From Botryllus schlosseri (Eukaryota): DNA of 64,000 bases. The position numbers were made by a program, and so were the translations under genes. The DNA is taken from NCBI GenBank assembly GCA_051294905.1, contig CM119372.1, positions 35,528,001 through 35,592,000 on the forward strand, written 5' to 3'. Below are positions 4,950-36,852 of this stretch, piece by piece (position 1 is the first letter of the stretch; every line of letters starts with the position of its first letter). The notes beneath the pieces are model-generated. The model was given only the letters and a program-made list of their open reading frames with translations, was not told the DNA's origin and made no database searches.

Positions 4950-5440
4950 TGTGATGTGCGAGAGCGAGGAACCTGTAGTCGGTTTTATTGACAATATCTC
5001 GACTGGCGCTGACAATATAAACGGATCGTCCTGCCTCGGTGAGTCGTAGGGCTGGCGGTGCACCGGATTTAAGGTACTTTTCACTGGAAAGCAAACGTAC
5101 ACTTCCTGTGTGAAGAGGTCAAAGCTTATCAAGAAACTTACAAAGGTTTTGCCTAATCACTTCAGTGGTTATGTTTAAGAGTAGGCTACTTCCTTCCACT
5201 TCCCCTTGGCAGCTTTATTCCTCCTTGTGAGGGAAATTAACATAACCTATTTGCACCAATTTGTAATGACATTGGTTATTCTGTGTTACTGGAAAACATG
5301 TACGATGTAAAAGTAAACTGTATTCGGTGAAGTGACCACCTCCGATTAACTGATCAAATTATGCCACACCGAGGCCAAATCTACTTTTTCAAACTAACTA
5401 CTTGGGTACTGTTCGTATCTCCATTATTCTGTTCCTGCTT
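4950..5440 (+). mobile_element. Possible very decayed LINE reverse-transcriptase remnant
   Basis: Frameshifted patches in the expected order: STGADNI, GTFHWKANV, an NYRP-like/TSVVM patch and GTV..SPLF; weak similarity only. Confidence 0.3.
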
Positions 5441-7044: not shown

Positions 7045-7185
7045 ATGAATCTAACTCTGGCCGGAACTGTGGACTATCAAGTTCCTTTTTGGTTGCGAAT
7101 CGTTATCATCATCTATATATCTCTAGTCACGTCTTCGGGAATTGTGATGAATGGGATTGTTATAACTGCCTTTTGGAAAAATAAG
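7045..7185 (+). CDS. Opsin A exon 1 (N-terminus, TM1)
   Basis: caccATG start; MNLTLAG...MNGIVITAFWKNK; donor gttagt at 7186; same 141-nt length as paralogue B exon 1. Confidence 0.85.
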
Positions 7186-10100
7186 GTTAGTTCTGGTAGC
7201 ACAGCGTTTAATCAAATTCATGGATTGAAATCTCTATCTCTACTGCATATCATGGGGGTGTACTTCGGAATTATCAAGTTCACTTAGCTTTACATTGTGC
7301 TAGTAGTGCTATGTGTAAGGCGTTGCATATGAATGCTTTTTTAGAATTAATATCTCGTATTCAAGTATTTCCAGCTCCGATAGGATTCTCGCATTAACCT
7401 GGTTGTAAGGCTTGAAGAAATTACGCGGGCTATCTAGCTGTTCATCTGATCGGCTAAATATCCTCTAGGCTTATGGCAACACTTACTGGTCGGAGGTATT
7501 AGTTTTAAGTTCTGATTGGTTATTTTTTCTTGGGATTCGAAAATTTGCAGATAAAGACTGACCTTACTACTGTCCTAACATATAACATAATATTATGATG
7601 AATGAAGAACTCGATTTTGATTGATTTAGAAACTACGAACGCCGGTGAACTATTTGATTTTGAATCTATGCGTGTCCAACCTTCTCAGCGCTACTGCCAG
7701 CGCATCTTTAATCATTCCAATAAATACGATTGGAGAGCAGTTTTTTGGCAACAAGGGCTGCATGATGTATGTTCTCGTCTGTGGAATATTCGGTACGTAT
7801 CCTCAGGTGGCTATACACGGGTTCACTGGCGACTACGGCTTGGGCACTATAGGGTTGTTCAAATATTTTTTTCAGGATTGCAAGGATTCAATGATTACAT
7901 TGTTGGTTGCATAAAAAAGCGCTTCACCTTCACGCCACATTTGGCTCAATTCCAACGAGTAAAAGCCGAAGCTGATCCTATTGAAGATTTTGAATTATCT
8001 ACAAAAACGACGCAAAATAAAGTTGACGCACTTCCAAGGAGTAGAATCGAAGTTATTCGAGTTTTTACATTGATTATGCAATTTATAAGTCAAAGCCATT
8101 ATCGCAAATACAAAACTTTCAGCCGCAATAACTGCGCTTCTACCGGTTGGAATATTGCAAAAATTGTTATGCGTCGTTATTTTAGGCAGCTCAACAATTT
8201 CTTCGGCTTGAAACTAAAATTATTTAAAAATAAATCCAATAAATTCAATTTTTTCAATTGGATTTGCCTGGGCTTCTATTGATTGTAATTAAGCCTAATT
8301 TGGTGAGAAGCTTTTCCAAGACAGCCTAAAATTCAATCGGTGATCCCCGGAATACGGAAGAAAGTCATTTTGAACAGCCCTACTAGGCACAATCATACGA
8401 GTACTCGAACCTGAATCTAGTGTTATTTCTAATAACTCGAGTCCGAGTAGTAGGAGTGATTTTTTCAGTACGTAAATTATACTCTTCATGCCAGAACAAG
8501 CTCATTTATCAAGGGATATCATAGTTTCCAGCATATCATAGTTTCCTTTAACCTCCATTGATCATGGCGCATCACGGGATCATGTAGCACAAGGCTACGC
8601 ATGTTAGTGGAAATACCATGATCAAACCACATCTTTTGTCACAAAGTGAAATGAAATCGGTATGATGGAGAAATATTCAAATTATGTTTTTTGAGATCTA
8701 GAACTATCACTGCAATCTTTGCGATGAAGGGTCGCAATTCCACGTCATAGATACTGTTGAAGCCAGCGTTGAAGCGACTCGTGTCGCTTTGCAAAAATGT
8801 CTTGAAGTGACATGATTCGACATTTGCAAAATGTAAATTGACTCGAGACTAATTTTTCGTGTCAAGTCCAAGTCATCCTGTAATTGGTGTTGATTTATTC
8901 ACTGCACCTGTATACGTACATGTTCAACACACAATGATATGTCCTGTGTGAGCAAGCAGTCATGTAACGATTGCAAAGTCTTCTATTATTGAGCCTGAGC
9001 AGATATGTCATATCGATATGCATAAGTTTAGATTCAGATCATCTGTGAAATGAGGGAATCTCATTCTCCTGACAGCTGATTTGATTTAAAAAGGCCAATG
9101 GCGTTCATTTCAGGCACAAGTAATTCAAGTCCATCTCAATTAATTTAAAGTTGAATGACAACTCATTCCAGTGATGTTAGGGATGGTGGTCATTTTTGTG
9201 AATAATATTGCAAGTGACTGTTAGGGTTATCCCTGCATTCAAATGCAATGTGACAACTCGCTGATTTTCGTTAAGGTGTGACAAATTTATGTACGATTGT
9301 GGTTCTCTCTATCGCGCATTTCATCGTGATATGCAAGTCCAAGCGTTTCACTCTGAGTCGCCGTCATGTTATCGCAGGTTAGTGTTGAATAAGTATTGTG
9401 TTATTTTCTGGCTAATATGTATTTCAAAAACAGAACGGGATTCACCCAGAATTGAGTTGAGCAACTTTGCTAGTATTAGGAAAAATGACGTAAGCCTGTT
9501 GAATAGCATTCGCCTATGTTTCAACTGAAATCATTTTCCTTATTGGTAGTTGTATAAAAGGTACATATTTGAATTTACTAATTGAATAGATTATGATGAT
9601 AATTCTTCTTATGTATTTCAAGGAATCGTATTCGTCTGGATATGGTCGTCTCTGTGGAACGGGGTGCTCGTTGGTAGCGGGGGCTATGGTACAGACACCA
9701 TCCAATCAGTTTGCGGGATAGTGTGGAATTCAGTCGATAAGAATATAGTCCAATATACCTTGTATATGACGTGTTGCTTCGTATTGCCACTGTCCATTCT
9801 CACGTACTGTTACGGATCCATTATATACGAAATCCGACAGGTAGGCTAATACTGTAACAGGTGACAAGTAGGCTATCTCAGCAACTGTCTTTCTACTGCA
9901 TACACGAGTTGGAAATAACAGACCTACGTCCAACGTTAACGAATTTTACACAGTTAAAAAACTTAAGGTGAAATTTCATCTCCTCTGCCGAACTGATATT
10001 GAAGTATTGAATTTGAACATTTTACAACAAACATTAGGCAATAATTACTTATTACCAACATTGAAAGGTGAATAGATATGTTATAGAAGCACAACCTTAT

Positions 10101-13100
10101 GTACAGGAAGCTAAGCTATCCATATATTTCACAAAAGTGAATCCAGATCAAACGGGACATACGTAAGATGTATATATAACTGACGGTACAACTTCCAAGT
10201 TGTGAGAGTATAATAAGCTCCGTGGCACACTGATCTCGCGGTTGATACGTCACAATTCGACACTGTCTCAATCGAACCGATGGATAAGGTAACGTAGCCT
10301 GGACAGTGACGACAGTCTGTTTCACAGCGTACAAAGGTATCTAGTTTCTCGTCGACATCAAGAGCTGCCCTGCCAGAAGCTGCGAAAATGGTTTTTGTAA
10401 TCATGGTCGCGTTTTTGATTTGCTGGTGCCCGTACGGCTGCGTCGCCCTGCTAAGAATGATCAGACCATCTCACAAGGTTTGCGCTATATCATACGTGAT
10501 CTAACTTCTGTACGGAGATCGCATGTTTGTTGAATTACAGATTCCTATTTTCGTGGAAAGTGCCTTGTCATTTTTCGCGAAATCGTCTTACGTTACGAGC
10601 CCGATCATCTACGTGGCCATGAATAGTCAGGTACGAATAACAGGACTATATAATTGAGATTGAGTTTGCCGTTAAGTTAAACACACCTTTGCTTAAGGGG
10701 ATGACTAACGATCCATATATTTTCAAAATCGTTAATGAAAGTAGAGTCTACGTCAAAAGATAGAAAAAGAAAATAATCATCTAAACCACATTTATGACTA
10801 GAAGGTCAAAGAATTTATCCTAAATAGTTAAGGTCACTCTCTTTTCCACTATAAAGTCACTTTATTGGAACGGGAGAATTTGCAGTCTCGTCCGTGCATA
10901 GGATATTAGCGCTAGCGAGACCAAAATATCTTGCTATTGTGTGATGGATCATTAGATCTCCTGTGAATATATTACATCCGCCATTAATATCTGTTTATTC
11001 GTGAATGCCCGAATTTCTGATACCGCATTTCTGATGTGCGTTCGTTGGTGTTGTTTTCAAATCTGAAATCTCGAGGTTTAAAATTGAACAGTATTTCTTC
11101 ACCTTATAATCATGCCCCACTGTCGGCTTTTTAATTTTTCATTGTGCTGCCCTGTTTTCAATGCTCTATTCGATAAGTCGTCTTGAGGATATTTAAAAAT
11201 TGTTTTAACAGCAAGGGACCTGCGTGAACATAGGGAAAATAGGAACGGCAGAAGTTGGAGTTTTGTTTCTGCGATAAATTGATAGGTACAAACATATAAG
11301 TACAACCTTTTATTAATGGAGTGATGACCTCAGATTATTATTTATTCGAATGTCTGCTACTGTTGTGTCAACTGTGGGTCGGAACGTGCTATTACCGAAT
11401 CCAAGCGCAGGCACATCAGAGATGATGAACTATATCAGGGGTGTTAATCATTCGGTGGGCTTCGATCTAGTTTTACATGTCACCTACCGAACCGCTGATT
11501 AAAATTAAGCTCAAGACATATCTCAGACCTAAATACGATATATTCGCTATGAGTCTGTGTTGGACTTCGACCAAAATATTGTAAACTTAATGTAAGGATC
11601 GGCAAAGTTAATGTTTAGTAAGGATTCACAGTCGCAAGCGTTCTTACGATCTACCGAAATAGCCAAGCGATATTCCTTAAATGACACTGAGTTCCACCGT
11701 AGTTTCCTATAGCTCAGGAGGAAGTCAGCGACGCAAAGCACATGTATATTTCCTATTGTTGCCATACCGATTTAGCACTCTCACTCTCGCCGATCCGCTG
11801 CTTGCTCCTGCCACTTTCTCCTGAGGTGCTGCATCGTTCCCCCAAACGGCATTATCACGTCGTTACGAAAAACTTTTTCATAATGCAACATTCGGGACTG
11901 ATTTCAAAGGGTTCCAGGGCCACGAGCAGAGTAAAATGTCTATGTTACCAATGAGGATACCGCGGTAGCTTTCGATTGACAACCGCTTTATTAAATTTCG
12001 CGATCGGCAAGCCAGTCTAAATATCTCCGAAATTGCCTTTGGTCAAATGGAGCGAATGACGTAGCCCAAACCCAGCAGTGAGCCGTTTGACTTGGTTGTA
12101 TCCACACCACTGTCATATACTGTCAGAGCTGTAACTGCCGCACCTCAAGCCCCCAATTGAGCGCGAGCTCGAAGAAGGCCCTAAATTATTCCGCTAATCA
12201 ACATAAATTACAAAGTATTTTGTGAAAGATTTCGCATAACTTCAAATATTTTTACTTTTAAAATTGGTACTGGCAGTACCCCAAGGAAAAAAATGCGCAT
12301 GATTTTTACAAAGAATTGACAATGCAGCCCCACCATTACGTCCCCATGACGCACCAAGACTTCTGGAGTCTCGGCCCACATGCGAATTCGCGAAGTGTGT
12401 CTATTAAAACCTCGTCCTAAAATGACATCCGCACGTTGGCCGAGAGAACAATCAACATCTATAATCTATTATAGCCTAGTGCTAATTGTCGGGATGCAAG
12501 GAATAGCTTTGCGCTTGCTATCTGAAGTAACCACCGCCGCGACCTCTACCATTAAATCTGATCACATAAACTGGGAGACGATGAAAAATTATTTGCAATA
12601 TATGTAATCACCGATATTATAGAGAAAATCGGATCCTTAGCCTACTATGAAATGTTTTCGCGCGTGGCGCGACTACGCCCACACATAGATATGTGCCCTG
12701 AGACAGAAAAACGTACTTTTCTGTTAGTGGTAAAGAGGGAGTGTTGAAGGCAACCCTGGTCCAAGAAGTTTGACGTATGATCATGTGGGGCTTGGGGTCC
12801 ACGACTAACGTTTGGGGGCTGACGAAGTACTATCTAGGCCCTGGACAATGCATCATGATCGAGGTCATCGCAATGAGCGAACCAGCTCTCGATACTAGAA
12901 TGAGAATAGCTAATAAGTAGCTGCTAATTCATATGTACGTTGTGAGTTGGGTTATCCCCATCGCATATAGGCCTACCTGATTAGTATTGTTGACATCGGT
13001 ACAATGGGAATCTCTGATAACAGAATCTCTAGACATCAAACTGATAAACTGAATGCAACTTTTATACACTGGCTGCATAACTGCATTTTGCAGATGAAAC

Positions 13101-13213
13101 AAAGCGTACTGAAGGTATTTCGACTGCCCTCATCGAGGCGGAATCGATCGTCAATTTCAACGAAAGCAACGCATCTCACAGTCGAAAAATGTGGGGACGG
13201 CATGCGTACCTAG
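7045..13213 (+). CDS. Opsin paralogue A (ciliary-type gene structure, atypical activation motifs), 7 coding exons, 327 aa
   Basis: Exons 7045-7185, 7630-7792, 9276-9377, 9623-9840, 10328-10477, 10541-10630 and 13094-13213. All introns are GT-AG, phases 0,1,1,0,0,0, summing to 984 nt in frame. Motifs: MNLT sequon, KLRTPVNYLILNL, C110, C187, CWCPY and FFAKSS (K296 at 10580-10582). An in-frame ATG at 7036 is an alternative start. Confidence 0.93.
7630..7792 (+). CDS. Opsin A exon 2 (TM2 to start of TM3)
   Basis: tttag acceptor; KLRTPVNYLILNLCVSNLL...GCMMYVLVCGIFG; donor gtacgt. Confidence 0.92.
9276..9377 (+). CDS. Opsin A exon 3 (TM3, ICL2)
   Basis: VTNLCTIVVLSIAHFIVICKSKRFTLSRRHVIA; 102 nt as in paralogue B; donor gttagt. 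Confidence 0.9.
9623..9840 (+). CDS. Opsin A exon 4 (TM4, ECL2, TM5)
   Basis: IVFVWIWSSLWNGVLVGSGGYGTDTIQSVCGIVW...FVLPLSILTYCYGSIIYEIRQ; donor gtaggc. Confidence 0.92.
10328..10477 (+). CDS. Opsin A exon 5 (ICL3, TM6)
   Basis: RTKVSSFSSTSRAALPEAAKMVFVIMVAFLICWCPYGCVALLRMIRPSHK; cag/gt boundaries. Confidence 0.9.
10541..10630 (+). CDS. Opsin A exon 6 (TM7 with Lys296)
   Basis: IPIFVESALSFFAKSSYVTSPIIYVAMNSQ; preceded by a 63-nt intron. Confidence 0.93.
13094..13213 (+). CDS. Opsin A exon 7 (helix 8, C-tail)
   Basis: ttttgcag acceptor; MKQSVLKVFRLP...MRT*; homologous to paralogue B MRKRVLEVFRLR. Confidence 0.85.
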   Translation: MKQSVLKVFRLPSSRRNRSSISTKATHLTVEKCGDGMRT

Positions 13214-13505
13214 CCACACAAGGAAGATGATTACCGACTTCCGGGTTTCGAAAAGAAGAAATTTGGATGCTACCGAAAGAGACTATTATTAAATGGGCGC
13301 CAAGTATGAGCACCATTTGGATAAGGTCACCATACCGGCCGAATCGACCGACAATCGTATATCGTGCATTTATGTATGAAGGAGGCAGAAAGGCATCTCC
13401 GATAATTGTGTTTACGCATCTTGAGAATTCGGAAGTTGTTAACTTTGGTTATGGTACGCCACATTCCAATCCGGAAATATAAACCAATTACCTGAATATC
13501 AAAAC

Positions 13506-13802
13506 CAGCAGTTCTCAACCGTTGGTCTGCGGACCTCTAGGGGTCAGCAAAGCATTTTCAAGGGGTCCGACAAGCCTCTAAATTTGCACAAGGGTTAATA
13601 CCTTAATTTGTATTTCTTTAAATTAGGGAAATAATGGGGCAGTTTCACTTCATCGCTGCTGAAACCTGAATACTCACATCTACAGAATGGACGTTTTGTT
13701 GGGATTTATGGTAAAATATAAAGGTCACAGTCGTGCAGGTCAATCAGAGTGACTTCAAAACGTTTGCAAAACCCAAAAAGACAAAAAGGTTGAGAACCAC
13801 TG
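13506..13802. mobile_element. hAT (Charlie/Buster-like) MITE just 3' of opsin A
   Basis: CAGCAGTTCTCAACC ... GGTTGAGAACCACTG; TSD ATCAAAAC/ATCTGAAC. Confidence 0.75.
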
Positions 13803-14721
13803 ATCTGAACGCTTACATCCAATAATAAAAATGGGAATATTGCTGCTTCTATTTCTCCTGGTTAGCATCAGTAGCAATTTCAACATGTATTTTTGCAGCG
13901 AAAAACTGCAAATGGAAACGGAAAATTCTTTACTATGTGTGTACACGTTTTGAAATGAACAATGTTTAATTAGCAGCACACCTATGAATGTGGCGCGTGT
14001 GAATGCCAGGAAGCGTTTCTTCGCCCGGGTATCGACGTTATCCCGGATCTAAAGAGTGTTTTATGTAATATACATTACCTCTTTACACAGTGATCGGAAC
14101 TCCGTGTGTCTTGTCTAACATTTTCTTCTATAAATGCCGGTAGCTGTGTTCAAATTTACCGCAAGTGGTAAAAATGATAACGTGATATTATTTTATCGCT
14201 TGCTTTGCGTCTACTGCAGAGGTGGCCAACCTGCGGTCGTAGAAGGAAATTTGTGCGGCCGTGGACACGTTATTCAATTTGTATGTGTTGGCGGCTGTCG
14301 ACATGCAATTTTAATTTACGAATAGACTACCGATTTCTTGAGAGATTTTAACTGATCTTGAAATTTATGTCGCGCTTGGCGCGATTCAATGCGACTTAAT
14401 TTTTTTATTTTGATTCATAGTAGCGCCATTTCCAATCATCAGCACAGATTCCAATTTCCAATCATCAGCACAGATTCGAACAGCAGAAGAAAATGCTGCG
14501 CTCCATTTTGAAATACAAACTCGCAATCGTGTGCTCCTCACTATACCGACAATCCTGATGGGAGGTCAAGAAATAACGGCATGCAACAAAGTGACCATTT
14601 GACCAATAACAATTTATAACTTGCCCTAAATTTTAGAAAACACCCCCCTCCATCAACTTTACCAGTGATACCAGTGAATCTGATCACATGGGCTAAGGAA
14701 GGATAATTTTTTTACAGCAAT

Positions 14722-16725
14722 CAGTGTTGGGATCAAGTCACTACCTTCGGGTCACGAGTCATTGCACATTTTGACTCGAGTCACGTCAAGTCAATGGATT
14801 TTCGAAGGTGACTCGAGTCAAGTCAAGTCACTCGAATTTTGGAGATGACTCGAATCAAGTCGACTCAAGTCAAGTCAAGTAACGAGTCAAGTCACAATCC
14901 AAGTCAAGTTGCCTTTTGGAAGTAGGCCTATGAGGCATGATTACGTCATTGCAATTTGATACGTGTCTGAAATACAGATTGAGTGGTCATTGTTATTTTG
15001 AGCCGATGAACGAATATAGAGTAAAATATACACGAAATAAGGCGCTGTTTCGCTCACATATACGCATAATTTCTAACCTACGTGAGTAATTGCATAGCCT
15101 CAGTTTAAAGTTACCAGCCAATCTAGAGAATAGAGAAACTAATTGATAAGATGCAATACATTTTCCATTTACAAATAGATATGATACAATTCGAGCCTGC
15201 GCCAATGGTTGAGGACTATAATAAATAATATTCGAATTCAATTTCAATAAAACAATAGGTTTGGTTAAGGGGCTAAGCTACCCCTCGAATTGCAAAATCA
15301 GTCATACACCTATAACTTCGAAAATAGGAAATCGATCTTTCTGAAATTTGCACACAATGTGCTTCAGTGGATATCCTAACATTGGTTAAAATTTTGTGTG
15401 AAACGGCCAACTATTTTTGACGTTTACCGTGTTTCCGTGATTTTTGAAATCAATTTTAGAAAATCTTTTCGCAGAAAAATTTTTTGGTGAAATTTTTTCA
15501 CGGTGCGATTTATAGATTCTAATTACTCCAAATTACGGACTCAAAAGGTTTTTTGATCATAATGTAAGTTCTTTTCAGGAAAAAAGTTTTTGTTCCGATT
15601 TTTTTTTTAAATCATCAATTTTTGACTTCGATGAACCGAAATGGAGGTAACCCTTACCTAAACGAAAAAATCAACCTTTTCATCCTGTTTCCACGAGGAA
15701 GGTCCATTACACTGTTGACAATTCACCAATGAATTAACAGTGTCCAAAAAAACAAAGCCCACTAGTTGAAAAGTTTCTTCACGGCAGATTTCATCAGTAG
15801 CAGATCTCATATGATGGAATGCCATGACTCTTTTTTCAACTGGGGTTACCTCGACTTCCTTTGGCTTCTTTCTTGTCCCATCACCAATTTTCTTCCCATG
15901 AAATTTCTTTTTTTTACGACCATAAGCTTTTACAGTCGCCTTCTTCCCACCCATCTTGCAAATAATAACCAATCTTTAGTACCAACATGCAGATATCGCA
16001 AAAAATCAGTCACTAAACCTGTCTCTCTGCACACAAAAACCGACTAAAATAGCCAAGCCTGGCTCCCAGCCTGTTGTTTTGATGTTACGCATGACCAGCT
16101 ACACCATAGATACCCGAAATACCAAATTTAGTGACAGAGAACAACGTAGAGCCAAGGAACTTGGGATATTGTCGGCGGCTGTTGCTTGAGATGAGGAGGG
16201 AGGGGGGTTGTATAGGCTCAGAAAATATCGAATTTAACAAAGTTAGGATTATCCAATCATTAAAAGATTTGGATAGATGAAAGATCAAGTCGAATAGAAG
16301 TTATTTTACCAAAAAAAAAGAAAATCGAAATTTTTTCAATTTCGTGGGTAGCTTAGCCCCTTAAGGTAAGAGCAGAGTACAGAAATAGACATTTTGCTAT
16401 TAAATTACTTTACTATACTGATTTACGACAACGTAAGCTGTAAGCTTCGATAACTTCGTTTACGGTCAATTTATTCGTGAGAGAACAATGGAGGCTCACT
16501 AAAACGCACGATCACTGAGCGATTGGTCGCTCTCACGGGTTACACCAGCGTTTCGCGAACAATCCTAACATAAGCAAGATACAGTGATTTTTATCGACAC
16601 TGATTGCTTGATGACTTGAAATTGACTCGTGAATTTTGCTCCGAGTAACGAGTCAATCCACATTTCTTATACGCCGAGTCAAGTCAAGTCATACGAAAAA
16701 GGTGACTCGAGTCATCCCAACACTG
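14722..16725. mobile_element. MITE family B1 (TIR CAGTGTTGGGAT; GACTCGAGTC/AGTCA arrays), interrupted by a TTAA element
   Basis: 12-bp TIRs; TSD ACAGCAAT/ATAGTAAT; colinear in inverted orientation with 18084-18996 once 15269-16364 is removed. Confidence 0.88.
15269..16360 (-). mobile_element. Kolobok-like non-autonomous DNA transposon with a probable transposase N-terminal remnant (15954-15658)
   Basis: TTAA on both sides; 15-bp perfect TIR GGGGCTAAGCTACCC (purine termini, unlike the CC ends of piggyBac); internal ORF MGGKK...GRKKKKFHG...CQQC; empty site CCTTAACC in the B1 copy near 18470. Confidence 0.8.
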
Positions 16726-22901: not shown

Positions 22902-23042
22902 ATGAACGAAAGCTTCCACGAGTACGAGGAATATCAAGCTCCTGTTTGGATGCGGGCTGGAATCATAGCTTACATATCGCTGGTTACAATTTCTGGTACA
23001 CTAATGAATGGTGTTGTTATTATTGCCTTCTACAAAAATAAG
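22902..23042 (+). CDS. Opsin B exon 1
   Basis: MNESFHEY...MNGVVIIAFYKNK; donor gtaagt. Confidence 0.87.
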
Positions 23043-26000: not shown

Positions 26001-29000
26001 GTACTCGATTTATACCGCAGTATAATTTGTGGTTTCGTGTAGAATGGGTGTATATTCACATCCGCATATTAGGAGTGGTACACGGGTGGAAAGACGCTCT
26101 ATTCGAAAAGAGTCTACCTATTGGAAACCCATACCTCCACTTCGACCAGAGTAGCGAAGCTGACTATAATTTGACCACTTATGCGTTATTAATGCGCGAT
26201 ATGCCCAAATGTCGACACCCATTCTACTCGCCATTATCCTCACCATTACAGAGCCTTCGCACACCGCTGAACTACCTCATCTTAAACCTGTGCGTATCGA
26301 ACCTACTCGGCACGACTGCGAGCGCGTGCTTGGTCATCCCGGTAAACGCGCTCGGGGAGCAGATTTTCGGAAATTTGGGTTGTATGATTTACGTTTTCAC
26401 CTGTGGAATGTTAGGTGGGTGTTACCGATATATATATGGACAGATAAACCCTTAAGGCAGGGGACGCCAACTCAAAGCGGGTTGTGGTTCACTTTTCCAA
26501 TTTCGCAATGGCCGCGGGGCGCAAGAATGCAATATTGAGAAAAAAGCAACAAGTTTAGCAACCACGTTTTTAAAACTTTACGCCAATACAGCGCTGATGT
26601 GCTCCTCAACATTGGCGACTGTAGTACATTTATAAAAGTAGTACAAATACAACAAGAAACATCGTGATAATCACTATCGTTTTATTTTGAAATATGAGCT
26701 GCGCACGATACCTGACAACAGTTTTCATCGAATAAACACTAAGGAATCAATATTGGGGCTGGCGAGATACGTTACTATAGCTGTATAGCAGAAAGATTGT
26801 CTCCTCCTAAAGCTTTATCATATGTGGGAAAGCCCTATGCCGTTTTCTTTGCGTCTTGGTCTTGGCATTGTCTGGGTCATTAAACTTCGAGGCAATATGC
26901 CAATTGATATCGGCAGATCCTCCCTCGATGGCATGCCGTTGGCAGCGTCGAAGCCGTTTCAGCTAGTGAGGAATATTGATATTTGGCACAGACGAATAGC
27001 TTATTTTGGGACAACAACAACAACCTTTTGGAACAAAAATAAAATTTAGTATTTCAAAATACTTTACTTGTCGTTCTTCCGAATTTCTAAATCAGCTGGC
27101 GGGTGACAAAATATGACCTCGCCGGCCGCGTGTGGATGACTCCTGCCATAAGGAAATATTTAGTAGTAGCGATGCTATGCACGTTCGGTTCATGCTCGTC
27201 TTCGGTATGCTGACATCTTCAATTCCAAGGTTGGCATTTTCAATAAAACTCCCATAACTCATCTTACCCGGTGAATAAGTTGGTGAAATATTATAATTAT
27301 ACAATGATGGTAACATTTTTATAGAAAATTCTTGTACTTCAACTTAATACCGCTCCATGCACGTCGATGACAGAGAAAAATAACATTAGACAAAAAAGTG
27401 AGCACTAATTAGCAAAACACCCTAATATTCTCGAGAATTTTGCTTGCAATAGCACACCTGATTTTGGTTGTAAATGATAGAATTAGTTCCCTTCCGTCAC
27501 GGCTATACGTGCTTTACACATAAAATATATGCAACCGAAAATGATCGCTGCAACAATGAAAATTCAACGACTGTCTCCGGAATGTTATTTCGTGACGCGG
27601 AGTCGTTCTGTCGTGTGTCAGATATTTGTCAATCTGTACTGGCCCGCATTGTGTGTCAATAGTAGCGGTCTTCCGATCGGTAAATTCTCGAAATTAGTTT
27701 TTGCAAAAATAATTGTCGCTAATTTTGTCTACCGCTCGCATCTTCTAGTCCGTGTAGCACCTGGCGTTACTGGCGAAATGCGTCACTCTCTTCTGCAATA
27801 ACAATAACAATAACATGCAGTAAAGCGATCTGTGTTTCAATTGGCATTGTGACGCCGTGCGTTGAAGTTCACACAAATCCACACATTTAGGTGGTTGCAT
27901 CATTGCTACTTGGTAGCATTGAATACCTACGGACTATGTATGTTCAATGACTTTTCTCGACAACCAATAGCTATCCAAATATTATTTTTCTATAATTTTA
28001 TTGGTGTTCTACATCTTTGCTTTTCAAACTGTTGGATGATACGGACGTGCATGGAACAAAAATTCCATCGAGGATGAAAAACGTGGTGCTGATGAAATCG
28101 TGCATATATTTCGTAATTTTTCTGACGTGGAATGATCTAAATAAACTTAATAGCAAATTTAGGTACAGTCAATCCCAAAGTTTTTCTTTGCGACACGAAG
28201 ACTGTAATTTTGGGTCGCGACGGCACCAGAGCGATATTTTAACATGTATGTAATACTTCTTTAATTTCCTGCAAAAAAATATTTCTTCGCGTGATTTCGT
28301 GTGACATAAAGGTATGTCGTTTACGCCGACATGCGGATGTGCAAAGCGCGGTACCAGAATGATCGGTGATGATAAAACTTTAGCCAATATTGACCGTCGC
28401 TGGTGGGTCAAAACCTTCGATATTGATATGCCTAGTTGCCGAAATGGTTGCCACCGATGTATAGCGCCAGCCTTGCAATCTGAATAGACGGTAGGGTCTA
28501 CACATGCAACCTTAGAGAAAAATGATGAACCCAATTTTTAGGGCGGAGATAATAAAGTTGGATTAGCAATGAAATCGATTATCCCGTTCGTCAGGATTTA
28601 TCAACCCAGGATTAAGGAAATCGGTAAATCGCAGCGCATAAAGTTGGTGTTAATCTCATGATTTAACAAACCGGATTAAACTATCGATAACTGCGTACCA
28701 TTCCTACGCAAAAATATTTCCGATAATGACCTACCGATTGTCAACTAGGTAATGGCTTCACCAAACAATCAACGAATTAAGTACCCGCGATTGCAGAGCG
28801 ATATCAATATTCTATAATCCGTTTCTTAGCTGTACCGTACTAATTTGACACGACTTTCGTTTGGCGATGATGATAATTGTACCTATTACAGTGGCAGTAT
28901 GGTTATCAGCAGGATGCTGTTTCATTCAACAAATCGACAACTGCCAGCCTATTACGCGTTTTCGCATTATGATGTAACGGATAACGCCACTTGATTGAAA

Positions 29001-32000
29001 ACTCGGGACATATCGATTAGACGACTAACCATCGCGCGTAACCTTTTCCAACTTCTTGGCGTCGCGATTAGCAGTATTTATTCACGCGATTAGCATTTCT
29101 CCGGATCAGCCAACTTCATTATCTCCGCCTAAAATGCGACCCGATTAGCAGTGTATAATCACATGATTAGCATTCTCCCGGATCAGATAACTTTATTATC
29201 TCGGCTCTTAATCATGCCCTTCATTTATGTTCCCTTGAGCTGCTATTGGCTTGCAGTTAATCATTTTCGGTAGGTTATAGTGCGAACGATGTTTTTTTGC
29301 ATAAAAAGTACGCATAGTGCTCAAAAAGGACTGTTCTATCTCATGCTATCCAACGATTGTTTACGGTGGCGAAAAACAATTTTTGCTCGCCGTGGTCTCA
29401 ATCTCATTTTTATTGCAGAAAATCACAGCTCCCAAGCCCACCACAGAAATTTTATGTAGTCTTTAATTGCGAACCGTTACTTTAACTCGTTTGTGCGCGC
29501 ACGATCTTATGAATTTTGTGTCATGAAAACATTGGAAAGCTTTAAATTATTATCGGAGTTTTAATTTGGGATGTATATCTAGTGATTCAGTGGCTAATAT
29601 CGAGTAATAAGATTTAAATCATTTTGCGCAACGCTGAATCACATATTCGCCATTTTTAGTGTTGAAGCGGTTATATGCTAAGTAAGTTGCGTTGAAGCCT
29701 TTTCTAGTTTTATGCGTGCCAAGACAATGTGCCTCTTGGGTCGTAAATTGACACCCCGTGTTTATGCCAATGCATGCATGTCGGCGCTATAGGGTTGTAA
29801 ATGTAAATTGATCGTACAAGGTAATAGAAACGTGAAATAGTAAATAGCAATATCATACGAAGATCTTGGATGAAAGGACGATTCGAGATTCAGATGAGTT
29901 ATACTTATTCTCTCATCCAATTTCGTCACTCATCACCAATTCGATCTGGTATGGGTTGACGCTATAAATTTTGTCTTACCAGCATACCAAACTAAACCAT
30001 CCAAAATATTTATAGGGGTCGCAAATCTATGGACGATTACGGTGTTGTCCATTGCACATTATATCGTCATATGCAAGTCCAGGCATTTCTCTCTTCGGCG
30101 ACGTCACGTGATCTCAGGTGAGCAGCATAACATCGATTACGTAACCATGAAGACTATAGATTATCGATATAAACCATTGGAAGTCGTGTGCAACTGGGTA
30201 AGTTGATTCCAGTAAACATGATTGTTGCCTTTCGAGTCCCTGTCGCTGACCTCAAGATAGCATGATGACTCGGGTAAGTTGCTCTGGTGTACAGCCTACT
30301 GTGTTGAGTTCTGCTTTTGTAGCGGCCTTCGGAAAGTAAATAGGTCATATTAGCAAAGTGACAATCGATTACTTCGTCTTCGGGGTGCTGTCAAGAATCA
30401 TAAGTCATGCAAATAAACTTGGCGTTGTTCCAATTCCTAAAAATAGCACAATTAAACCAGAAGTATATACTGCATTTTTCGAAAGTAGGTGACTCCCCTA
30501 CTAGGCAAGCCAACTTGCTGTCACTCGGAAGTTGAAATAGCTGTTATGAAGAGAAATTCGTGACGAGCCGATTGACAATTTTCAGTCTCAGATATAAATC
30601 CTCTCTAGAGTGTTATCATCACCTTTTGAAATTTTTTTTCAACTGGTCTCGCTTGTTAGCTGCATCGTGGTCGGTTTTGAAAATTTAGTTATTGCCCTGA
30701 ATTCTTAATTTTAGTCACATCATAGTTAAACATCGCTAACGCAATTATCCAGTCCGAATATATCGGTTAATTAGCGAATTTAAGGACTATAAGGACTATA
30801 ATAATAACGCGGAACGCGTCCGACTACACATATCGGTATGATCGCAACAAATATGACACCAAAATGGACAAACAATTTTTTTTTATCTGGCAGCTTATCT
30901 TGAAATTATTACGGGAAAATCGCTATCTATCACAGTGTTGGAGGAGGAAGTGTTGGAGGTTTACCTAGGCTCCTCCTTGTCTCCTAATCCGCGTAAGCGG
31001 TGTCTTAAAAAAGCCTAGAAGCTGATCGTGCTAAAAGTCGGCTGTTACGGAATAAATATGAAGAATATTAGCCTGGTGTAAATGACCATAGTAGTCGACA
31101 AACACCATAAATACCTCAAAACAGACAAACAAACAGGAAAAAATGGATTGTTGTAAGCATTTCGAAGTCACCGTTATTGACCTTACTCATCTAACTTTTC
31201 TTCCCCACGATCCCCAATTAAAATCTTTAAACAGCAAAATATTTGTATCAGTGGGCAATTTAGTAATTAAAATGGAAGGAAGGAAGGATGGAAGAACGTA
31301 GTTTGTTTTTGTCCTCGATGTTTCTGCGGCATATACACCGACTCATAATATACATACGCACAATCTGTGCATATGCATACCATGTGTTTATGATGTGCAT
31401 ATGCCGCTGGACAAGGAAGGTACAGATATAGCCTTTTACGGCTTTCAAGGTCTTGCACCACCCCTCCATGCTATCCCAATGCATGAGCGCCATCCGGAAA
31501 GTCATGTATACCAGTGTTACTAGTCAGGTCTTTGGTCTGACCCGGCCGGGGATCGAACCCACTATCGATAACTAACCTGCGTAGGTTAGTTATCTATAAA
31601 CCCACGATCTACCGAGCAAGAAGCCGGACTCTTCACCATTACGCTATCTTGTCGGTAAAATGATCTGCCCAGTAGGATATTTCATCTCAGACGGCCATTC
31701 TGTTGATTTGAGCTCTGGATTTGGCTTGGTAACAGATAATTGTCGACGGATACATCAGATGGGTAAATATCGTGTTCCAGGAATTTTCTTCGTCTGGATT
31801 TGGTCCGCCATATGGAATGGCGTGCTTGTCGGCAGTGGTGGATACGGATCCGACAAAATGAAGTCGGACTGCGGAATTGTTTGGAATTCTGTTGATAAGA
31901 AGATTGTCCAATATACGCTGTATATGGTTTGCTGTTTCGTCGTGCCACTGATATTTCTCTCGTATTGTTACGGTTCGATCATCTACGAAGTAAGACAGGT

Positions 32001-35000
32001 ATACAAATATCGGTATAGAGTCGCATCTACATACGTAGGGTTGCATTTAAAACAAAAAACCAATTTAAAACAGACAGGTTTAAATCAAGGCCATTGTTTA
32101 AAACTTTTTTAGGCCATGACGTCATGAATATTTAATTGTGACGTCATAGTGGATTGACATTGACAATTGAAGATATAGGGTAAATATAGCTACTTTGAAG
32201 AAATATCTGTACCATGGCTGTTGAACCGAATATTTTGAGGATTCCAACCATCCCGCATATACGCCAGCTATATCGGGTGATAATTGTCCGTAGGTTCAAA
32301 CAATATGTTTGTTTTTTTCGAAAAGCATTTACACAATTATGGCATAATTTTACAACTTAAAAGTGACACAATTTTTTAAAGGCCCTAGTTTAAAACACTG
32401 TTTAAAACATGATTTAACAGAGTATTTTAAAACACCGTTTGTTTTAAATGCAAACCTAAACAAAAGTATATCGTCGTAATAAGTTCTGTAGTTGTGGCTA
32501 GGGGTGTATATCAACTGGATGATATATGAATAGGGCGACAACTCATTTCAGTGACATAAATACAATAGATTTTAGGTATATAATACTAAGTGTAGGACAT
32601 TAAATCGTTTGAATGATAAACGATGGAGCGAACGAATACTGTTCTGTGGCAAAGACATTGGATATTGGTTTAGAGCGAGACTTTGGCACGTTCCGCTGTA
32701 ATCTCCGAGTATAAATCCTGTCCTAACCAAAGTTGAATTATTCGTAAATCAAATGATGATCACCTGCAACGTTGCGCAATTGAAACTGGCCTCAGCCTGA
32801 ATTATTTGCCACTCGATTATGTTCTTCGGCATTGTCACTCAAATGAACAGTAAGTCAAATAAAATTTTACAGTAAGAGTGATGTTGTCGAAGGATACACT
32901 GGTCATCATTTAGTAGGGTTGACCGGCTATTATTTTCCGCATCTTTGAACAGCAAACAAAGTCGTCCAAAGCGTCCAAAGATGCCCTACCAGAAGCGGCG
33001 AAGATGGTGTTCGTGATCATGGTCGCGTTTCTGGTCTGCTGGTGTCCATACGGCTGCGTCGCTATGCTGACCATGATCAAGCCAAACTATAAGGTATGGC
33101 TATCTTGAACTGGTTGGATTCAGCCAGGTCAGATCGGCTCTATTGATCCGTCTTGCGAAATTTTGTTAGTTCGACGGACCGGTTAGCATGACTGTTTTAC
33201 TTTCGAAATGTGTAATGATCAATTTTGAAGTCGGCAGGTAACATTCCTGCATCGTGTTAATTTATATAATTGCAGCAATTTCCCATTTCAGATTTCCCGT
33301 CGCAAAATGGAAGAGTCGCATCATAAGTACCATTTATGAGACGGCGTCTGCTTTTTAGGGTGACTCTTAACATTGATGAAATTCAGCCAGTTCGCCTCGA
33401 TGCGCTGGAACATTTAGTTACATCCAGTTCTTGTAACTACTTTAGTATCGAAAATTTGGAATAACGTTAACCACAAAATTACTTATATCTCGGAAATCGA
33501 AAATGGCTTGCTATTCGTAAAACGGTGTTATATGGCATATCCATAAATAATATTCGGCCCATTTGCCAGAAAATATGAAAGCTGTACATTTCGACTGACG
33601 AACAATTTCAATCGTATCGATGCTTTCTTCCATTTAGCTGACTTATAATGTTGCCTGCTAACACGACTTACTTGCTTTTCAGACGCCAATTTTCATGGAC
33701 ACTGCGCTGTCTTTCTTTGCGAAATTATCCTTCATCACCAGTCCCGTTATCTATGTGGCTATGAATACCAAGGTATATACCATTCTGATTTAAATATATC
33801 CTACAAATACAACGTGCAGACAAAGAACATCATTCAATTGACCTCAAGCAACCAATACTAAGGTCTGATCGAACGTCATACATTGTTGGTGACCGTTGTA
33901 AGTTCGAGTTGAATGGGGCACTTGGAGTAGCGCCGATTACAGGGCGCAATAAATGCTATCTTTCCTAGTCCTCGTATACATTAGGGTTACCATACCTCCG
34001 CCTTGTCCTCTTTTTTGACTTTTCTGAAAGTGTCCTCGCAAGACGCCCCAAATGTGCTAATTTTTGAGATTTTGTCCTCTTTTTTGAGTTACAGTAAATC
34101 AGCACCGAAGTAACGCTCCGGCGGGTATGTCGGGAACTGAGCCGGAAGGTTTACCTTTTTTTTGTTTAGTCAGCCAACTGATAACGTGAAAGAAAAACTG
34201 TATTTCGGGACTTAAGCTGGAAAGTTTACCTTTTTTTGTTTAGTCAACCGACCACGAGGTGGGTAAAATTTAACATTTTCTCATGATTTTTTTTCCGTTT
34301 TGCAAGTCCTCTTTTCACATTTCCAAAATATGGTGACCCTATTATATATCTGTGTTTTTAAATAAATCATTGCTGTGGCATCCATAAGCATGTCGTGGAT
34401 ATAATATTACGTGACACAAGTTGCAACGTGATGTTGTAAGGTAGATATTCTCCGAAACGTAGATAGTATAGTCTTAAATCTTGTGTTAGCCTTAATCATG
34501 ACGGGGCACGCCTAATGTATTTCAAATGGGTGGTAAACGGCATCAGGAATCGGGTTTGTCTATTTAGTATGAATGAATAAATCAATGAAATGGAGCACAC
34601 TAGGTGCGGTCGCGCATAGTAAACTGCATCTAGCCTATGCTTATGGCCTATATTTGAACACTTTCAGATACGACCAATACGACTGCGGGCATTTCATGTT
34701 AATTTTAGGAGGTTCCATAATTTAGGAGCCATTACTTGTATTCGCTAGATGGCGTATGCTTGACGACGCTTCTTGTTCTGATCTGAGAGAACCTTTCTGG
34801 ATTTAGCTATCATCGGGTACAGTTTGTCAATAGTAATTGGCCCACCAGGCGTTCCCCACTGTATCTACCGATCTTGTTGAGTCAATATCTTATTCGTGCT
34901 ACTGCTGTGTCGTATTATAATTTGAATATAAGGAAACTCGATCAATTAGAACTTCAAGCAATATACTGTTACTACCGTACTCAAAGAACGCGGTTATTAG

Positions 35001-36852
35001 CATCATGAAACTTATAAGACTTTGCGGCGCTGTCAGTTGAAGGGGGGACAGCTTACATATAATCATATAGGCAGTTTAACGACCAATGACGTAATTTTGA
35101 TCAAATCTACTGTCACATTAAATCAACTGACTTAAATTAACCGCTTCTTCTTCATGATATTCCATTTTCAAATCTGAAGGACCTAACTTGCGACATTAAA
35201 TAAATTATTGAGTGACAGACGACGTGACGGATTTCCCGTTGAACATAATTTACTCGTGTGCCTTTCCGTAACACTTCCAATAATATATTGACTCGTGGAG
35301 CAGTGTCAAGATGTTTGTAAGTGTAAATACATAGTTTGCTATGTTTCGCCTTTCCCTTGCGTACACTTTTTGCAACATCATTTTTGAAGTGTACTCACAT
35401 GTGCAGTTCATTCGAGAGGTTTGACCACCCCTGGCCAAGCGAGGTGACCAGTTGTAAACCATCCGCGACCGCATCATTTAAATTGGTGCGAACTTCAGTT
35501 GGACATTAAATTACTTCATAATCTGTAAACCGCGGTGCGCATCGACAGAGTCTTCAGAGTAGACCTGGATAGTCGGGAGTCGCGACCAGCTTCCAGTGTT
35601 GGGATCAAGTCACTACCTTCGAGTCACGAGTCATCTCGAGTCATTGCAGATTTTGAATCGAGTCAAGTCAAGTCAATCGATTTTTGAAGGTGACTCGAGT
35701 CAAGTCAAGTCATTCGTTTTTAGGAGGTGACTCGAGTCAAGTCAAGTCAAGTCACGAGTCAAGTCACAATTCAAGTCAAATTGAATTTTCGAAGTATGAG
35801 TTATGATTCAAAGTCATTACATTTTGCTAGCTGTATGAGAGACAGATTGATCAATCATTTATTTTAATCAAATAACAAATATCCAATTAAATATACATGC
35901 AAAAAGATGGTGTATCGCTCACGCACAGGTAGAACAGCTAATAAAGTACGTGATTAACTGTACAGCTACATACTACAGTCAGTTCTTATCAGCCAAAATT
36001 TAGGACCTAACACGAATCTTTGAGAAGTTGAAACAAATTGATATGGTACATAGCCTACACTACCCATCTACATATCCGTGAGAATATAAACGCACACAAT
36101 ATATTCGTTCGATTTAAATCATACAAGAAGATTGGTAAATGTGAGCATGAGCACTGGGTAACGTAAACATTGAGCCGTCTAAGAAACAGAGACACATTGC
36201 TATTTAGGGTAATTTTCTACTTTGCGGTCAATTTTTTGTGATCTAACAATAGTGGAACCTTTGTAACGTACAATCAGTGAATGATTGGTTGTTCTGACAA
36301 GTGACACCGGTGTATCTCGAACAATCAGAACATACACAAGATACGGTGATTTATTCGACACCGTTTACTTGATGACTTGAAATTGACTCGTAAATTTTGC
36401 TCCGAGTCACGAGTCAATGCACATTTTTGAAGCTCCGAGTCAAGTCATGACTCGAGTCATCCCAACACTGCCAGCTTCTAGATTAGTAAAGCTTTCTATA
36501 GCTAGAATCCCAACAAATATATAACCTGTGTTCGTTTGACGAGGAAACGAATAAACGTGTGTTATATGTATGATCGCGATATAATAAAAGTATCGAATTT
36601 TTGAAACTTCTTCGTGATGTATATTATCAGGCTGTTACATACTATTCCAGTTCACTATTCGTGGTATCACCTACATACGTGATTGCCAACCCATGCTCCA
36701 GAAATGAATTCTGCTTTACTTTGCAGATGCGAAAACGGGTACTGGAGGTATTCAGACTACGAGTGAGGTCTGCTAACAGCGAGTCGACGATGTACAAAGA
36801 GACTCATTCGGCTGTAAAATATCCAAACAAACTGTACAGTGTACAATTGTGA
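22902..36852 (+). CDS. Opsin paralogue B (tandem duplicate), 7 coding exons, 326 aa
   Basis: Exons 22902-23042, 26252-26414, 30016-30117, 31781-31998, 32953-33093, 33683-33772 and 36727-36852, summing to 981 nt. Intron positions and phases are identical to paralogue A. Motifs: MNES sequon, SLRTPLNYLILNL, CWCPY and FFAKLS (K296 at 33722-33724). An in-frame ATG at 22875 is an alternative start. Confidence 0.93.
23689..25255. mobile_element. Foldback element (nearly whole-length palindrome) in opsin B intron 1
   Basis: 23689-24094 is the reverse complement of about 24849-25255, and about 24184-24450 of about 24585-24851. Ends TAGGGTTGTCC/GGACGACCCTA; TSD ATGTGAAT/ACGTGAAT. Confidence 0.92.
26252..26414 (+). 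CDS. Opsin B exon 2
   Basis: SLRTPLNYLILNLCVSNLL...GCMIYVFTCGMLG; 163 nt as in paralogue A. Confidence 0.92.
28538..29210. mobile_element. Decayed TIR element with a duplicated right end
   Basis: TAGGGCGGAGATAATAAAGTTG at about 28539 inverted to CAACTTCATTATCTCCGCCTA at about 29110-29131; a second copy of the end region runs to about 29205. Confidence 0.5.
30016..30117 (+). CDS. Opsin B exon 3
   Basis: VANLWTITVLSIAHYIVICKSRHFSLRRRHVIS; tatag/gtgagc boundaries. Confidence 0.9.
30987..31135 (+). mobile_element. SINE family 1, 3' part
   Basis: Reverse complement of the SINE body at 48404-49140; CAAA-type tail. Confidence 0.7.
31273..31656 (-). mobile_element. tRNA-derived SINE family 2
   Basis: Minus-strand A box TAGCGTAATGG (31646-31636) and B box GGTTCGATCCC (31559-31549); (CCTT)n tail; the 3' part recurs at about 62228-62310. 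Confidence 0.78.
31781..31998 (+). CDS. Opsin B exon 4
   Basis: IFFVWIWSAIWNGVLVGSGGYGSDKMKSDCGIVW...CYGSIIYEVRQ; 218 nt. Confidence 0.92.
32036..32458. mobile_element. MITE with TTTAAAAC subterminal repeats
   Basis: TAGGGTTGCATTTAAAACAAA ... TTTGTTTTAAATGCAAACCTA; related fragment at about 2275-2390; no clear TSD. Confidence 0.65.
32953..33093 (+). CDS. Opsin B exon 5
   Basis: QTKSSKASKDALPEAAKMVFVIMVAFLVCWCPYGCVAMLTMIKPNYK. Confidence 0.9.
33683..33772 (+). CDS. Opsin B exon 6 (Lys296)
   Basis: TPIFMDTALSFFAKLSFITSPVIYVAMNTK; 90 nt. Confidence 0.93.
33982..34341. mobile_element. hAT-like MITE
   Basis: TAGGGTTACCATA ... TATGGTGACCCTA; TSD GTATACAT/TTATATAT; internal direct repeat of about 60 bp. 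Confidence 0.75.
35594..36470. mobile_element. MITE family B1 in opsin B intron 6
   Basis: TIR CAGTGTTGGGAT; perfect TSD CCAGCTTC. Confidence 0.93.
36727..36852 (+). CDS. Opsin B exon 7
   Basis: tttgcag acceptor; MRKRVLEVFRLRVRS...SVQL*. Confidence 0.85.
   Translation: MRKRVLEVFRLRVRSANSESTMYKETHSAVKYPNKLYSVQL

Follow-up and report, generated by a model that had tools for sequence, protein, structure and literature searches.

Two opsin genes, A and B, found in a 64,000-nucleotide window of the Botryllus schlosseri genome (contig CM119372.1, positions 35,528,001 to 35,592,000), are intact and expressed as spliced transcripts, they evolve under purifying selection, and the motif that they carry in place of E/D-R-Y is itself conserved. 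Judged by their sequences, both are animal (type 2) opsins, being class A seven-transmembrane proteins with K296 that are nearer to opsins than to other GPCRs. The explanation favoured here, to which about an even chance is given, is that they represent a selectively maintained clade of putative retinal-binding proteins, a lineage-specific tandem family that would have arisen from ciliary opsins and would no longer activate G proteins canonically. A and B may have an unusual way of sensing or handling light.

Structure, expression and selection of genes A and B

Both genes lie on the + strand and have seven exons each, with GT..AG at all 12 introns and reading frames open from ATG to stop. In gene A, exon 1 (7036..7185), which starts at one of two candidate ATGs (7036 or 7045), is an open frame with a GT donor and encodes the N-terminus and TM1 with N55. 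Exon 2 (7630..7792) contains TM2 with N83 (7678-7680), C110 and Y113, and exon 3 (9276..9377) contains TM3 and ICL2 with A-H-F at 9314-9322; both have phase 1 ends, at codon 121 and codon 156 respectively. TM4, EL2 with D181 (9694-9696) and C187, and TM5 with P215 and Y223 are encoded by exon 4 (9623..9840), which ends in phase 0 after codon 232. Exon 5 (10328..10477), whose acceptor at 10328 is set by spliced contigs, encodes ICL3 with L247 (10370-10372) and TM6 with CWxPY. TM7 with K296 (10580-10582), S302 (10598-10600) and Y306 (10610-10612) lies in exon 6 (10541..10630), which ends in phase 0 after codon 312. Exon 7 (13094..13213), located by tblastn with the gene B tail, completes the open model with helix 8, a Ser/Thr-rich tail and the stop codon.

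The open model of gene B begins with exon 1 (22902..23042), followed by exon 2 (26252..26414) with N83 (26300-26302), C110 and Y113, exon 3 (30016..30117) with A-H-Y at 30054-30062 and exon 4 (31781..31998) with D181 (31852-31854), C187, P215 and Y223. Exon 5 (32953..33093) carries L247 (32986-32988) and CWxPY; analogy with gene A guided the choice of its acceptor at 32953, and 32962 is possible too. Exon 6 (33683..33772) carries K296 (33722-33724), S302 (33740-33742) and Y306 (33752-33754), and exon 7 (36727..36852) encodes the tail, Ser/Thr-rich as in gene A, including the stop codon.

RNA evidence, consisting of contigs from three studies and 2+2 raw reads, covers A, its copy A2 and B. The joint of gene A exons 1 and 2 (7185|7630) occurs in one spliced contig of X3, that of exons 2 and 3 (7792|9276) in contigs of X2 and X3 and in two raw reads of X12, that of exons 4 and 5 (9840|10328) in contigs of X1 and X3, and those of exons 5 and 6 (10477|10541) and exons 6 and 7 (10630|13094) in X3. 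Five of the six A-type introns, all except the one after exon 3, are thus seen spliced, and contig variants indicate that both A and A2 are transcribed. The expression of gene B rests on one of its six introns, the joint of exons 1 and 2 (23042|26252), which is found in a contig of X2 and in two raw reads of X12. The RNA check of splice junctions that the first-pass annotation had proposed succeeded for five A-type joints and one B joint.

The proteins of A and B are 66% identical over 324 codons, with dN of 0.234 and dS of about 2.5, which is saturated. The dN/dS ratio is about 0.09 for this pair, far from 1 and indicative of purifying selection, 0.22 for A and A2, and 0.24–0.43 for pairs of the G-type genes of the same cluster. 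The exon identities that had been reported earlier, 27/47 residues in exon 1 and 20/30 in exon 6, were reproduced exactly, and the many synonymous differences noted with them are real, since 13 identical residues in exon 1 and 12 in exon 6 use different codons. The earlier view of these as intact genes and not pseudogenes is borne out by the open frames, the GT/AG introns, the spliced transcripts and the low dN/dS.

Residue states and the nine-locus cluster

Bovine rhodopsin numbering was fixed by HMMER alignment of single gene B exons. Exon 2 aligns to L68-F115, placing N at 83, C110 and Y113; exon 3 to 124-153, giving A134-H135-Y136; exon 4 to 156-231, with W161, D181, C187, P215 and Y223; exon 5 to 239-273, with L247, E249 and C264-W265-x-P267-Y268; and exon 6 to 285-311, with S292, K296, S302, P303, Y306 and N310. 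The first-pass annotation had listed K296, C110/C187, P215, Y223, W265-x-P267-Y268 and Y306 as kept and D83N, E247L and N302S as changed, and the alignment agrees on every one; its replacement of E134-R135-Y136 by A-H-F in A and A-H-Y in B holds at the codon level. N55, also listed for both genes, is consistent with the ungapped spacing to L68, by which alone it was placed because exon 1 searched singly against PDB gave no match.

The pair had been described as tandem. Both paralogues are real, but this understates the arrangement, since A and B are two of nine such opsin loci within 460 kb of one chromosome arm. The cluster is made up of seven open full models (A, A2, B, G1, G4, G6 and G7), with GT/AG at every intron, one partial gene in which exons 1-2 are not detectable, and one pseudogene with an in-frame TGA and Y306 changed to C. 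At least three subtypes are present, and identity between A/B and the G type is no higher than 37-44%. All seven full models have N83, AH[YF], L247, [S/C]302-P-x-x-Y, D181 and K296; the partial gene and the pseudogene have the lysine too, and the motif changes are common to all nine loci as far as each is readable. The sharing of these changes between A and B, as claimed earlier, is old, and they extend to a subtype 37-44% identical to both. E/D-R-Y at 3.49-3.51, D2.50, the Asn of NPxxY and the acidic residue at 6.30 are all absent, with A-H-F or A-H-Y, N83, S or C at 302 and L247 in their places, while CWxP, P5.50, Y5.58 and Y7.53 are retained. Few features of signalling class A receptors are as strongly conserved as Arg 3.50 and the D2.50/N7.49 network. 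An unbiased comparison of the seven cluster genes used the 56 columns that are conserved across a set of 25 vertebrate proteins (Opn3, TMT and parapinopsin); 22 columns were identical in all seven, and at 21 columns, including 83, 134, 135, 247, 302 and 313, the canonical residue was missing from all seven. Positions 113, 122, 184 and 186, in the pocket and EL2, vary among the subtypes.

Opsin class and ancestry

Pfam 7tm_1 matches six of eight single exons (E 4e-7 to 1e-4), each under the cut-off for whole proteins, since every exon was scanned by itself; two exon 6 pieces of 30 residues each had no Pfam match. Bovine rhodopsin is the top PDB match for exons 2, 3, 4 and 6 (for exon 2 beside a rhodopsin nascent-chain entry) and outscores squid and spider opsins, while the top match of exon 5 is a bradykinin/opioid receptor chimera (E 1.6e-6), above rhodopsin (E 4.2e-5). 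Full-length phmmer searches returned parapinopsin-labelled proteins as best matches, with 168.5 bits for A and 156.3 bits for B (E 1e-47 to 1e-51). In an exhaustive HMMER search covering 1.84 billion representatives, exon 4 alone matched Opn3 first, and no relative above 39% identity was found among them.

Genes A and B have introns at codon 121 (phase 1) and after codons 232 and 312 (both phase 0), which match the three that are reported to be shared by every c-opsin group and to differ from those of xenopsin genes (PMC5648526). Opn3-/TMT-like genomic fragments run from G121 to 232, and the end of a partial Opn3 falls at 312. The exon lengths of human RHO served as an extra check. Two further opsin loci in the same genome keep D83, E113, R135, E181, E247 and NPxxY and have their introns in the same pattern, and one of these canonical opsins shares all five checked intron positions with the cluster. 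The same genome also carries a GT2 + GH6 cellulose-synthase locus, which points to a tunicate. Trees of Opn3, TMT, parapinopsin and own-genome opsins, built with no outgroup, place the cluster with the own-genome canonical opsin against the vertebrate groups at 95% SH-aLRT, at a point where long branches meet, as the program warned. The intron positions and phases, together with the best matches, support the ciliary type assigned earlier. That the cluster belongs instead to another opsin group (tetraopsin, xenopsin or bathyopsin), its c-opsin likeness being superficial, is quite improbable: trees without outgroup opsins and the very long branch of the cluster leave some room for it, but the introns match the c-opsin set and differ from those of xenopsin, the same exon ends recur in the Opn3-/TMT-like fragments, the canonical opsin of the same genome shares the intron positions, and Opn3, TMT, parapinopsin and, in PDB, bovine rhodopsin score best.

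Among the closest known systems are the vertebrate-type ciliary opsins of vertebrates and tunicates, such as parapinopsin and probably Ci-opsin1. In common with the cluster, they have c-opsin introns, K296, a bridge between C110 and C187 and an acidic residue at 181; the cluster is only 30-32% identical to parapinopsin and 34-37% identical to the canonical opsin of its own genome. The cluster has N83, A-H-[YF], L247, [S/C]PxxY and Y/F113 where parapinopsin and canonical c-opsins have D83, [E/S]RY, E247, NPxxY and E113. Opn3 and TMT share the exon boundaries at 121 and 232 at 28-31% identity, and the proteins compared keep D83, ERY, E247 and NPxxY, unlike the cluster. RGR, retinochrome and peropsin resemble the cluster in that they have the retinal lysine but deviate from the motifs for G-protein coupling. 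RGR opsins are reported in PMC6233551 to be without NPxxY, and the starfish RGR and peropsin tabulated there have D83, unlike the cluster. The gene structure and best matches of the cluster are of the c-opsin type, so its likeness to RGR and retinochrome would be convergent, and the intron pattern argues against membership in the RGR/retinochrome/peropsin group.

Possible function and significance

In the favoured explanation, an ancestor would have replaced the cytoplasmic activation network before the family radiated, with N in place of D2.50, A-H in place of E3.49-R3.50, L in place of E6.30, S or C in place of N7.49 and, in the members whose helix 8 is known, M in place of F313. The chromophore site would have been kept, with K296, the C110-C187 bridge, F212, F261, W265 and Y268, the acidic residue at 181 being the only candidate counterion, as would the helix-movement switches CWxP, P5.50, Y5.58 and Y7.53. 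K296, D181, F212, F261, W265 and Y268 suggest that the proteins still bind retinal and absorb light, and they would respond to light without canonical activation of heterotrimeric G proteins; their output would therefore be G-protein-independent. Among the possible outputs, retinal photoisomerization or retinoid buffering, as in RGR or retinochrome, would be slightly ahead of arrestin-engaged or partner-modulating signalling. As counterpoints, a photoisomerase with a housekeeping role would hardly seem to call for eight or more diversified paralogues, and the Ser/Thr-rich tails of A and B resemble those of signalling receptors.

The retained Y223, Y306, CWxP, P215 and N310, together with the conserved substitute His, mean that His could partly stand in for Arg, with some coupling surviving. 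In an unlikely but serious alternative, the proteins are still G-protein-coupled photopigments, in which His 3.50, Y5.58 and Y7.53 form an alternative active-state network, and the cluster is a common kind of sensory expansion in which the microswitches are unusual. Conservation of A-H-[YF] at dN/dS of 0.09-0.43 fits this, as does the variation at 113, 122, 184 and 186, which is of the kind seen in tuned sensory families; against it, five more network residues (83, 134, 247, 302 and 313) are changed alongside R3.50, which PMC7272623 describes as conserved GPCR-wide and crucial for activation, reporting that V2R R137H loses cAMP signalling and couples constitutively to beta-arrestin-2 at a very high level. 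V2R R137H is like the cluster in that Arg 3.50 is replaced. Rhodopsin R135 mutants and atypical chemokine receptors are other receptors with a changed R3.50. These are disease mutants or decoys in other families, whereas the change in the cluster is natural and conserved, lies in a retinal receptor and comes with five or more further changes in the network.

A light-independent role, as chaperone, structural partner or chemosensory or thermosensory receptor to which retinal is irrelevant, is improbable. Loss of signalling motifs with a large tandem expansion would resemble chemoreceptor-like families, but K296, acidic 181, C110-C187 and the aromatic cage F212/F261/W265/Y268 are present in all seven models despite 37-44% identity, and even the pseudogene retains the lysine. 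There is hardly any likelihood that the cluster consists of decaying or recently dead duplicates, to which the pseudogene and the member with no detectable exons 1-2 might point; seven models are open, dN/dS is 0.09-0.43, the A-B dS is saturated and correctly spliced transcripts are seen. For A, A2 and B, this origin is in effect refuted.

Full-text literature searches found no paper on AH[YF] opsins or on a tunicate opsin cluster. At least seven intact retinal-type opsins under purifying selection, among them the expressed A, A2 and B, share a conserved set of replacement motifs, and canonical paralogues in the same genome are built-in controls. It is possible, though we hold it tentatively, that a tunicate opsin family derived from vertebrate-type ciliary opsins gave up G-protein coupling throughout the clade before its members diversified, as arrestin-engaged light sensors or as a second, independent photoisomerase system. 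If true, the cluster would be a natural, selected R3.50-to-His receptor series for G-protein-independent opsin function. If the proteins form pigments, it would be a natural experiment on opsins without canonical G-protein activation (photoisomerase, arrestin bias or partner modulation), situated in the sister group of vertebrates, near the origin of vertebrate visual opsins.

Two seven-exon opsin genes in the window

Stop-to-stop frames and a splice-site listing define two seven-exon opsin genes on the + strand of the window, a stretch of eukaryotic DNA with a G+C content of about 39%. The exons of gene A lie at window positions 7036 (or 7045)-7185, 7630-7792, 9276-9377, 9623-9840, 10328-10477, 10541-10630 and 13094-13213, the last of which was located by tblastn with the tail of gene B as the query. 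Those of gene B lie at 22902-23042, 26252-26414, 30016-30117, 31781-31998, 32953 (or 32962)-33093, 33683-33772 and 36727-36852. The introns are GT..AG throughout, and the spliced frames are open from ATG to stop over 330 codons in A and 326 codons in B. Pfam 7tm_1 was matched by six of the eight exons scanned singly. The first-pass annotation had read A-H-F at 9314-9322 and A-H-Y at 30054-30062, and both were recovered when the codon triplets were re-read; its counts of identical residues between the two genes (27/47 in exon 1 and 20/30 in exon 6) were likewise exact.

Residue numbers were set by HMMER alignment of the gene B exons to the bovine rhodopsin chains in the PDB. Exon 2 corresponds to L68-F115 of bovine rhodopsin (with N83, C110 and Y113), exon 3 to 124-153 (A134-H135-Y136), exon 4 to 156-231 (W161, D181, C187, P215 and Y223), exon 5 to 239-273 (L247, E249 and C264-W265-x-P267-Y268) and exon 6 to 285-311 (S292, K296, S302, P303, Y306 and N310). 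Exon 1 alone had no match in the PDB search, so N55 was assigned by counting back from L68 on the assumption of no gap. With exons 2, 3, 4 and 6 the top opsin in the PDB was bovine rhodopsin, above cone opsins and the squid and spider opsins; with exon 5, rhodopsin was outscored by a bradykinin/opioid receptor chimera.

Intron 1 of gene B contains a nested foldback at 23760-25185, with inverted arms of 337 nt (95% complementary) and 282 nt (91% complementary). The intergenic repeats at 14337-15003, 16338-17004, 17672-19005 and 20340-21673, which include a 199-nt inverted pair (16516-16714 and 18156-18354), are covered at very high depth by RNA reads and by the contigs of all three runs, and probably represent a mobile element or satellite that is present in many copies and transcribed. 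Downstream of gene B, two SUEL-type (rhamnose/galactose-binding) lectin domains on the + strand, at 55366-55782 (E 4e-14) and 57595-57852 (E 1e-14), probably belong to one multi-domain lectin gene.

A nine-locus cluster and its motif set

A genome-wide search with exon 4 across the assembly (495.5 Mb, 219 contigs) gave nine matches between 35.10 and 35.56 Mb on C2, the contig that carries the window at 35,528,001-35,592,000. Genes A and B, previously described as a tandem pair, therefore sit in a larger family. Complete open models, spliced at canonical sites, were obtained for seven loci: A, B, A2 (a copy 97.6% identical to A) and the G-type genes G1, G4, G6 and G7, whose models end at exon 6, no G-type exon 7 being found by similarity. 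Of the other two loci, G3 shows exons 3-6 only within the 14.7 kb of upstream sequence searched, and G5 (C2:35,436,195-35,440,040) is a probable pseudogene: its exon 4 contains an in-frame TGA and Y306 is changed to C, though the TM7 lysine is kept.

All seven full models have N83, A-H-[YF], L247, [S/C]302-P-x-x-Y306, D181 and K296 in common, together with C110/C187, W265-x-P-Y, P215 and Y223, and position 113 is Y or F across them. Since identity between A or B and the G type is only 37-44%, the motif set is older than a deep split within the family. A G-type gene followed by an A-type gene occurs twice, at C2:35,100,788-35,187,887 and at C2:35,499,383-35,541,210, and the second unit reaches window positions 1-13213. 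The pairs G1/G7 and A2/A are 97-98% identical with a dS of about 0.05 each, which points to one recent segmental duplication in which the G-plus-A unit would have been copied as a whole.

An unbiased scan for changed sites covered the 56 alignment columns at which at least 88% of 25 vertebrate c-opsins agree. Twenty-two of these are identical in all seven cluster genes, and at 21 the canonical residue is missing from all seven. Six of the 21 are positions of the activation network or of helix 8 (83, 134, 135, 247, 302 and 313), and the rest are located around the chromophore, within EL2 or close to them (90, 114, 122, 175, 181 with E to D, 184, 202, 207/208, 291 and 299). A paralogue on contig C16 covers 20 of the changed sites and has the canonical residue at 14 of them. 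A full-text literature search, of incomplete coverage, returned no published description of opsins of the A-H-[YF] kind.

Ciliary-type affinity and canonical paralogues

A word-index search with exon 4 of gene B and with an exon of another opsin of the same genome found no protein relatives, and a search of the ESM Atlas gave generic 7tm_1 leads only. With exon 4 as the query, an exhaustive HMMER scan yielded 30 matches, of which two were repeat proteins and the others fragments 29-39% identical; names on four of the 17 clusters looked up were opsin-3 (three) and 'hypothetical' (one). The matched genomic fragments start at G121 and stop at codon 232, followed by read-through, and one partial Opn3 stops at 312, indicating the same exon ends as in A and B. 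The profile search matched at least 120 proteins, and among the matches listed all were vertebrate Opn3, TMT or parapinopsin. Against these listed proteins the best full-length match was parapinopsin-labelled, at 168.5 bits for A and 156.3 bits for B, and the G type reached 90 and 87 bits.

The introns of A and B lie at 121 (phase 1), 232/233 (phase 0) and 312/313 (phase 0), positions that also agree with the exon lengths of human RHO. In the C16 gene introns lie at 121 and 156 (both in phase 1), two others follow 232 and 312, and one falls in the TM6-7 loop, matching the cluster pattern at all five positions checked. According to Vöcking et al., three introns keep their position and phase in every c-opsin group and differ from those of xenopsins (PMC5648526).

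The C16 gene and a locus at 37.135 Mb on C2 both retain D83, C110, E113, S-R-Y, E181, E247, CWxPY, K296 and NPxxY; exon 4 of the C2 locus contains an in-frame stop. Identity of the C16 protein is 42% with parapinopsin, 33% with TMT and 28% with Opn3, and it is 37% with A and 34% with B. In a tree of 33 rows without outgroup the cluster forms one group (100% SH-aLRT), and the cluster with the C16 opsin is separated from the vertebrate groups at 95% SH-aLRT, with a warning from the tool of long branches. Vertebrate-type opsins are reported solely from vertebrates and tunicates (PMC11893379), and an E113-bearing opsin thus fits a tunicate genome. A Logan contig protein (P0005) has an exon almost identical to that of the opsin at C16:14.47 Mb, so that the species or a close relative is represented in the protein collection, in which no cluster gene is present.

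Further c-opsin-like loci are many (C16:14.417-14.509 Mb, C8:19.047-19.056 Mb, C6:13.594 Mb, C14:11.52-11.55 Mb and C2:37.13-37.22 Mb), and the B. schlosseri genome looks unusually rich in ciliary-type opsins. No mitochondrial COX1 was found in the assembly, and amphioxus, starfish and crinoids were weighed as source lineages and set aside. Crinoids have three r-opsins. Amphioxus opsins are reported to be spread over 16 scaffolds (PMC5802833), and starfish c-opsins to retain D83 and NPxxY (PMC6233551). Elsewhere in the assembly, at C9:15,015,149-15,068,854 on the - strand, matches to GT2 cellulose synthase and to GH6 share a strand and are separated by 3.3 kb, and two additional GH6 matches are found close by. 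The GT2-GH6 fusion is not known from animals other than tunicates; the locus is of the tunicate cellulose synthase type and may be duplicated.

Selection, transcription and possible function

The proteins of A and B are 66% identical, with a dN of 0.234, a dS of about 2.5, which is saturated, and a dN/dS of about 0.09 (NG86). The ratio proposed earlier as a check on the paralogues is thus well below 1, with the saturation of dS to be borne in mind. It is 0.22 for A and A2 and 0.24-0.43 for the G-type pairs (NG86), with YN00, where run, giving 0.28-0.39.

Contigs of three runs from three studies, for which the RNA label is a guess, and raw reads of one RNA run were mapped on window positions 7000-26999. 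The run index lists no RNA run for the window, and the evidence of transcription is drawn from this mapping. Exact GT..AG joints were found for five of the six A-type introns (7185|7630, 7792|9276, 9840|10328, 10477|10541 and 10630|13094) and, within the stretch mapped, for one of the six introns of B (23042|26252). The raw RNA run gave just two reads at each of two joints. As the joints are spliced, the contigs represent processed RNA. The confirmation of junctions asked for in the first-pass annotation is obtained to this extent, the joint of A intron 3 not being among those listed. One contig has variants that match A2, and the acceptor at 10328 is present only in A, A2 having CAA at that site; both copies are therefore transcribed.

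The family is shown to be intact, expressed and under selection, and the motifs that replace the canonical ones are themselves conserved. Its proteins would bind retinal through K296 with D181 as the counterion, and the G-protein interface centred on R3.50 could not form. The same change of Arg 3.50 to His in another receptor, V2R R137H, is reported to abolish cAMP signalling and to give constitutive coupling to beta-arrestin 2 (PMC7272623). The main rival, that a non-canonical G-protein coupling survives, seems to us unlikely, at about half the weight of the preferred reading. The NPxxY motif is reported to be missing from RGR opsins (PMC6233551). Judged from residues and their conservation, there is an even chance that the cluster opsins of B. 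schlosseri are photopigments with a G-protein-independent role, among which photoisomerization or retinoid handling is ranked slightly ahead of signalling through arrestin or a partner.
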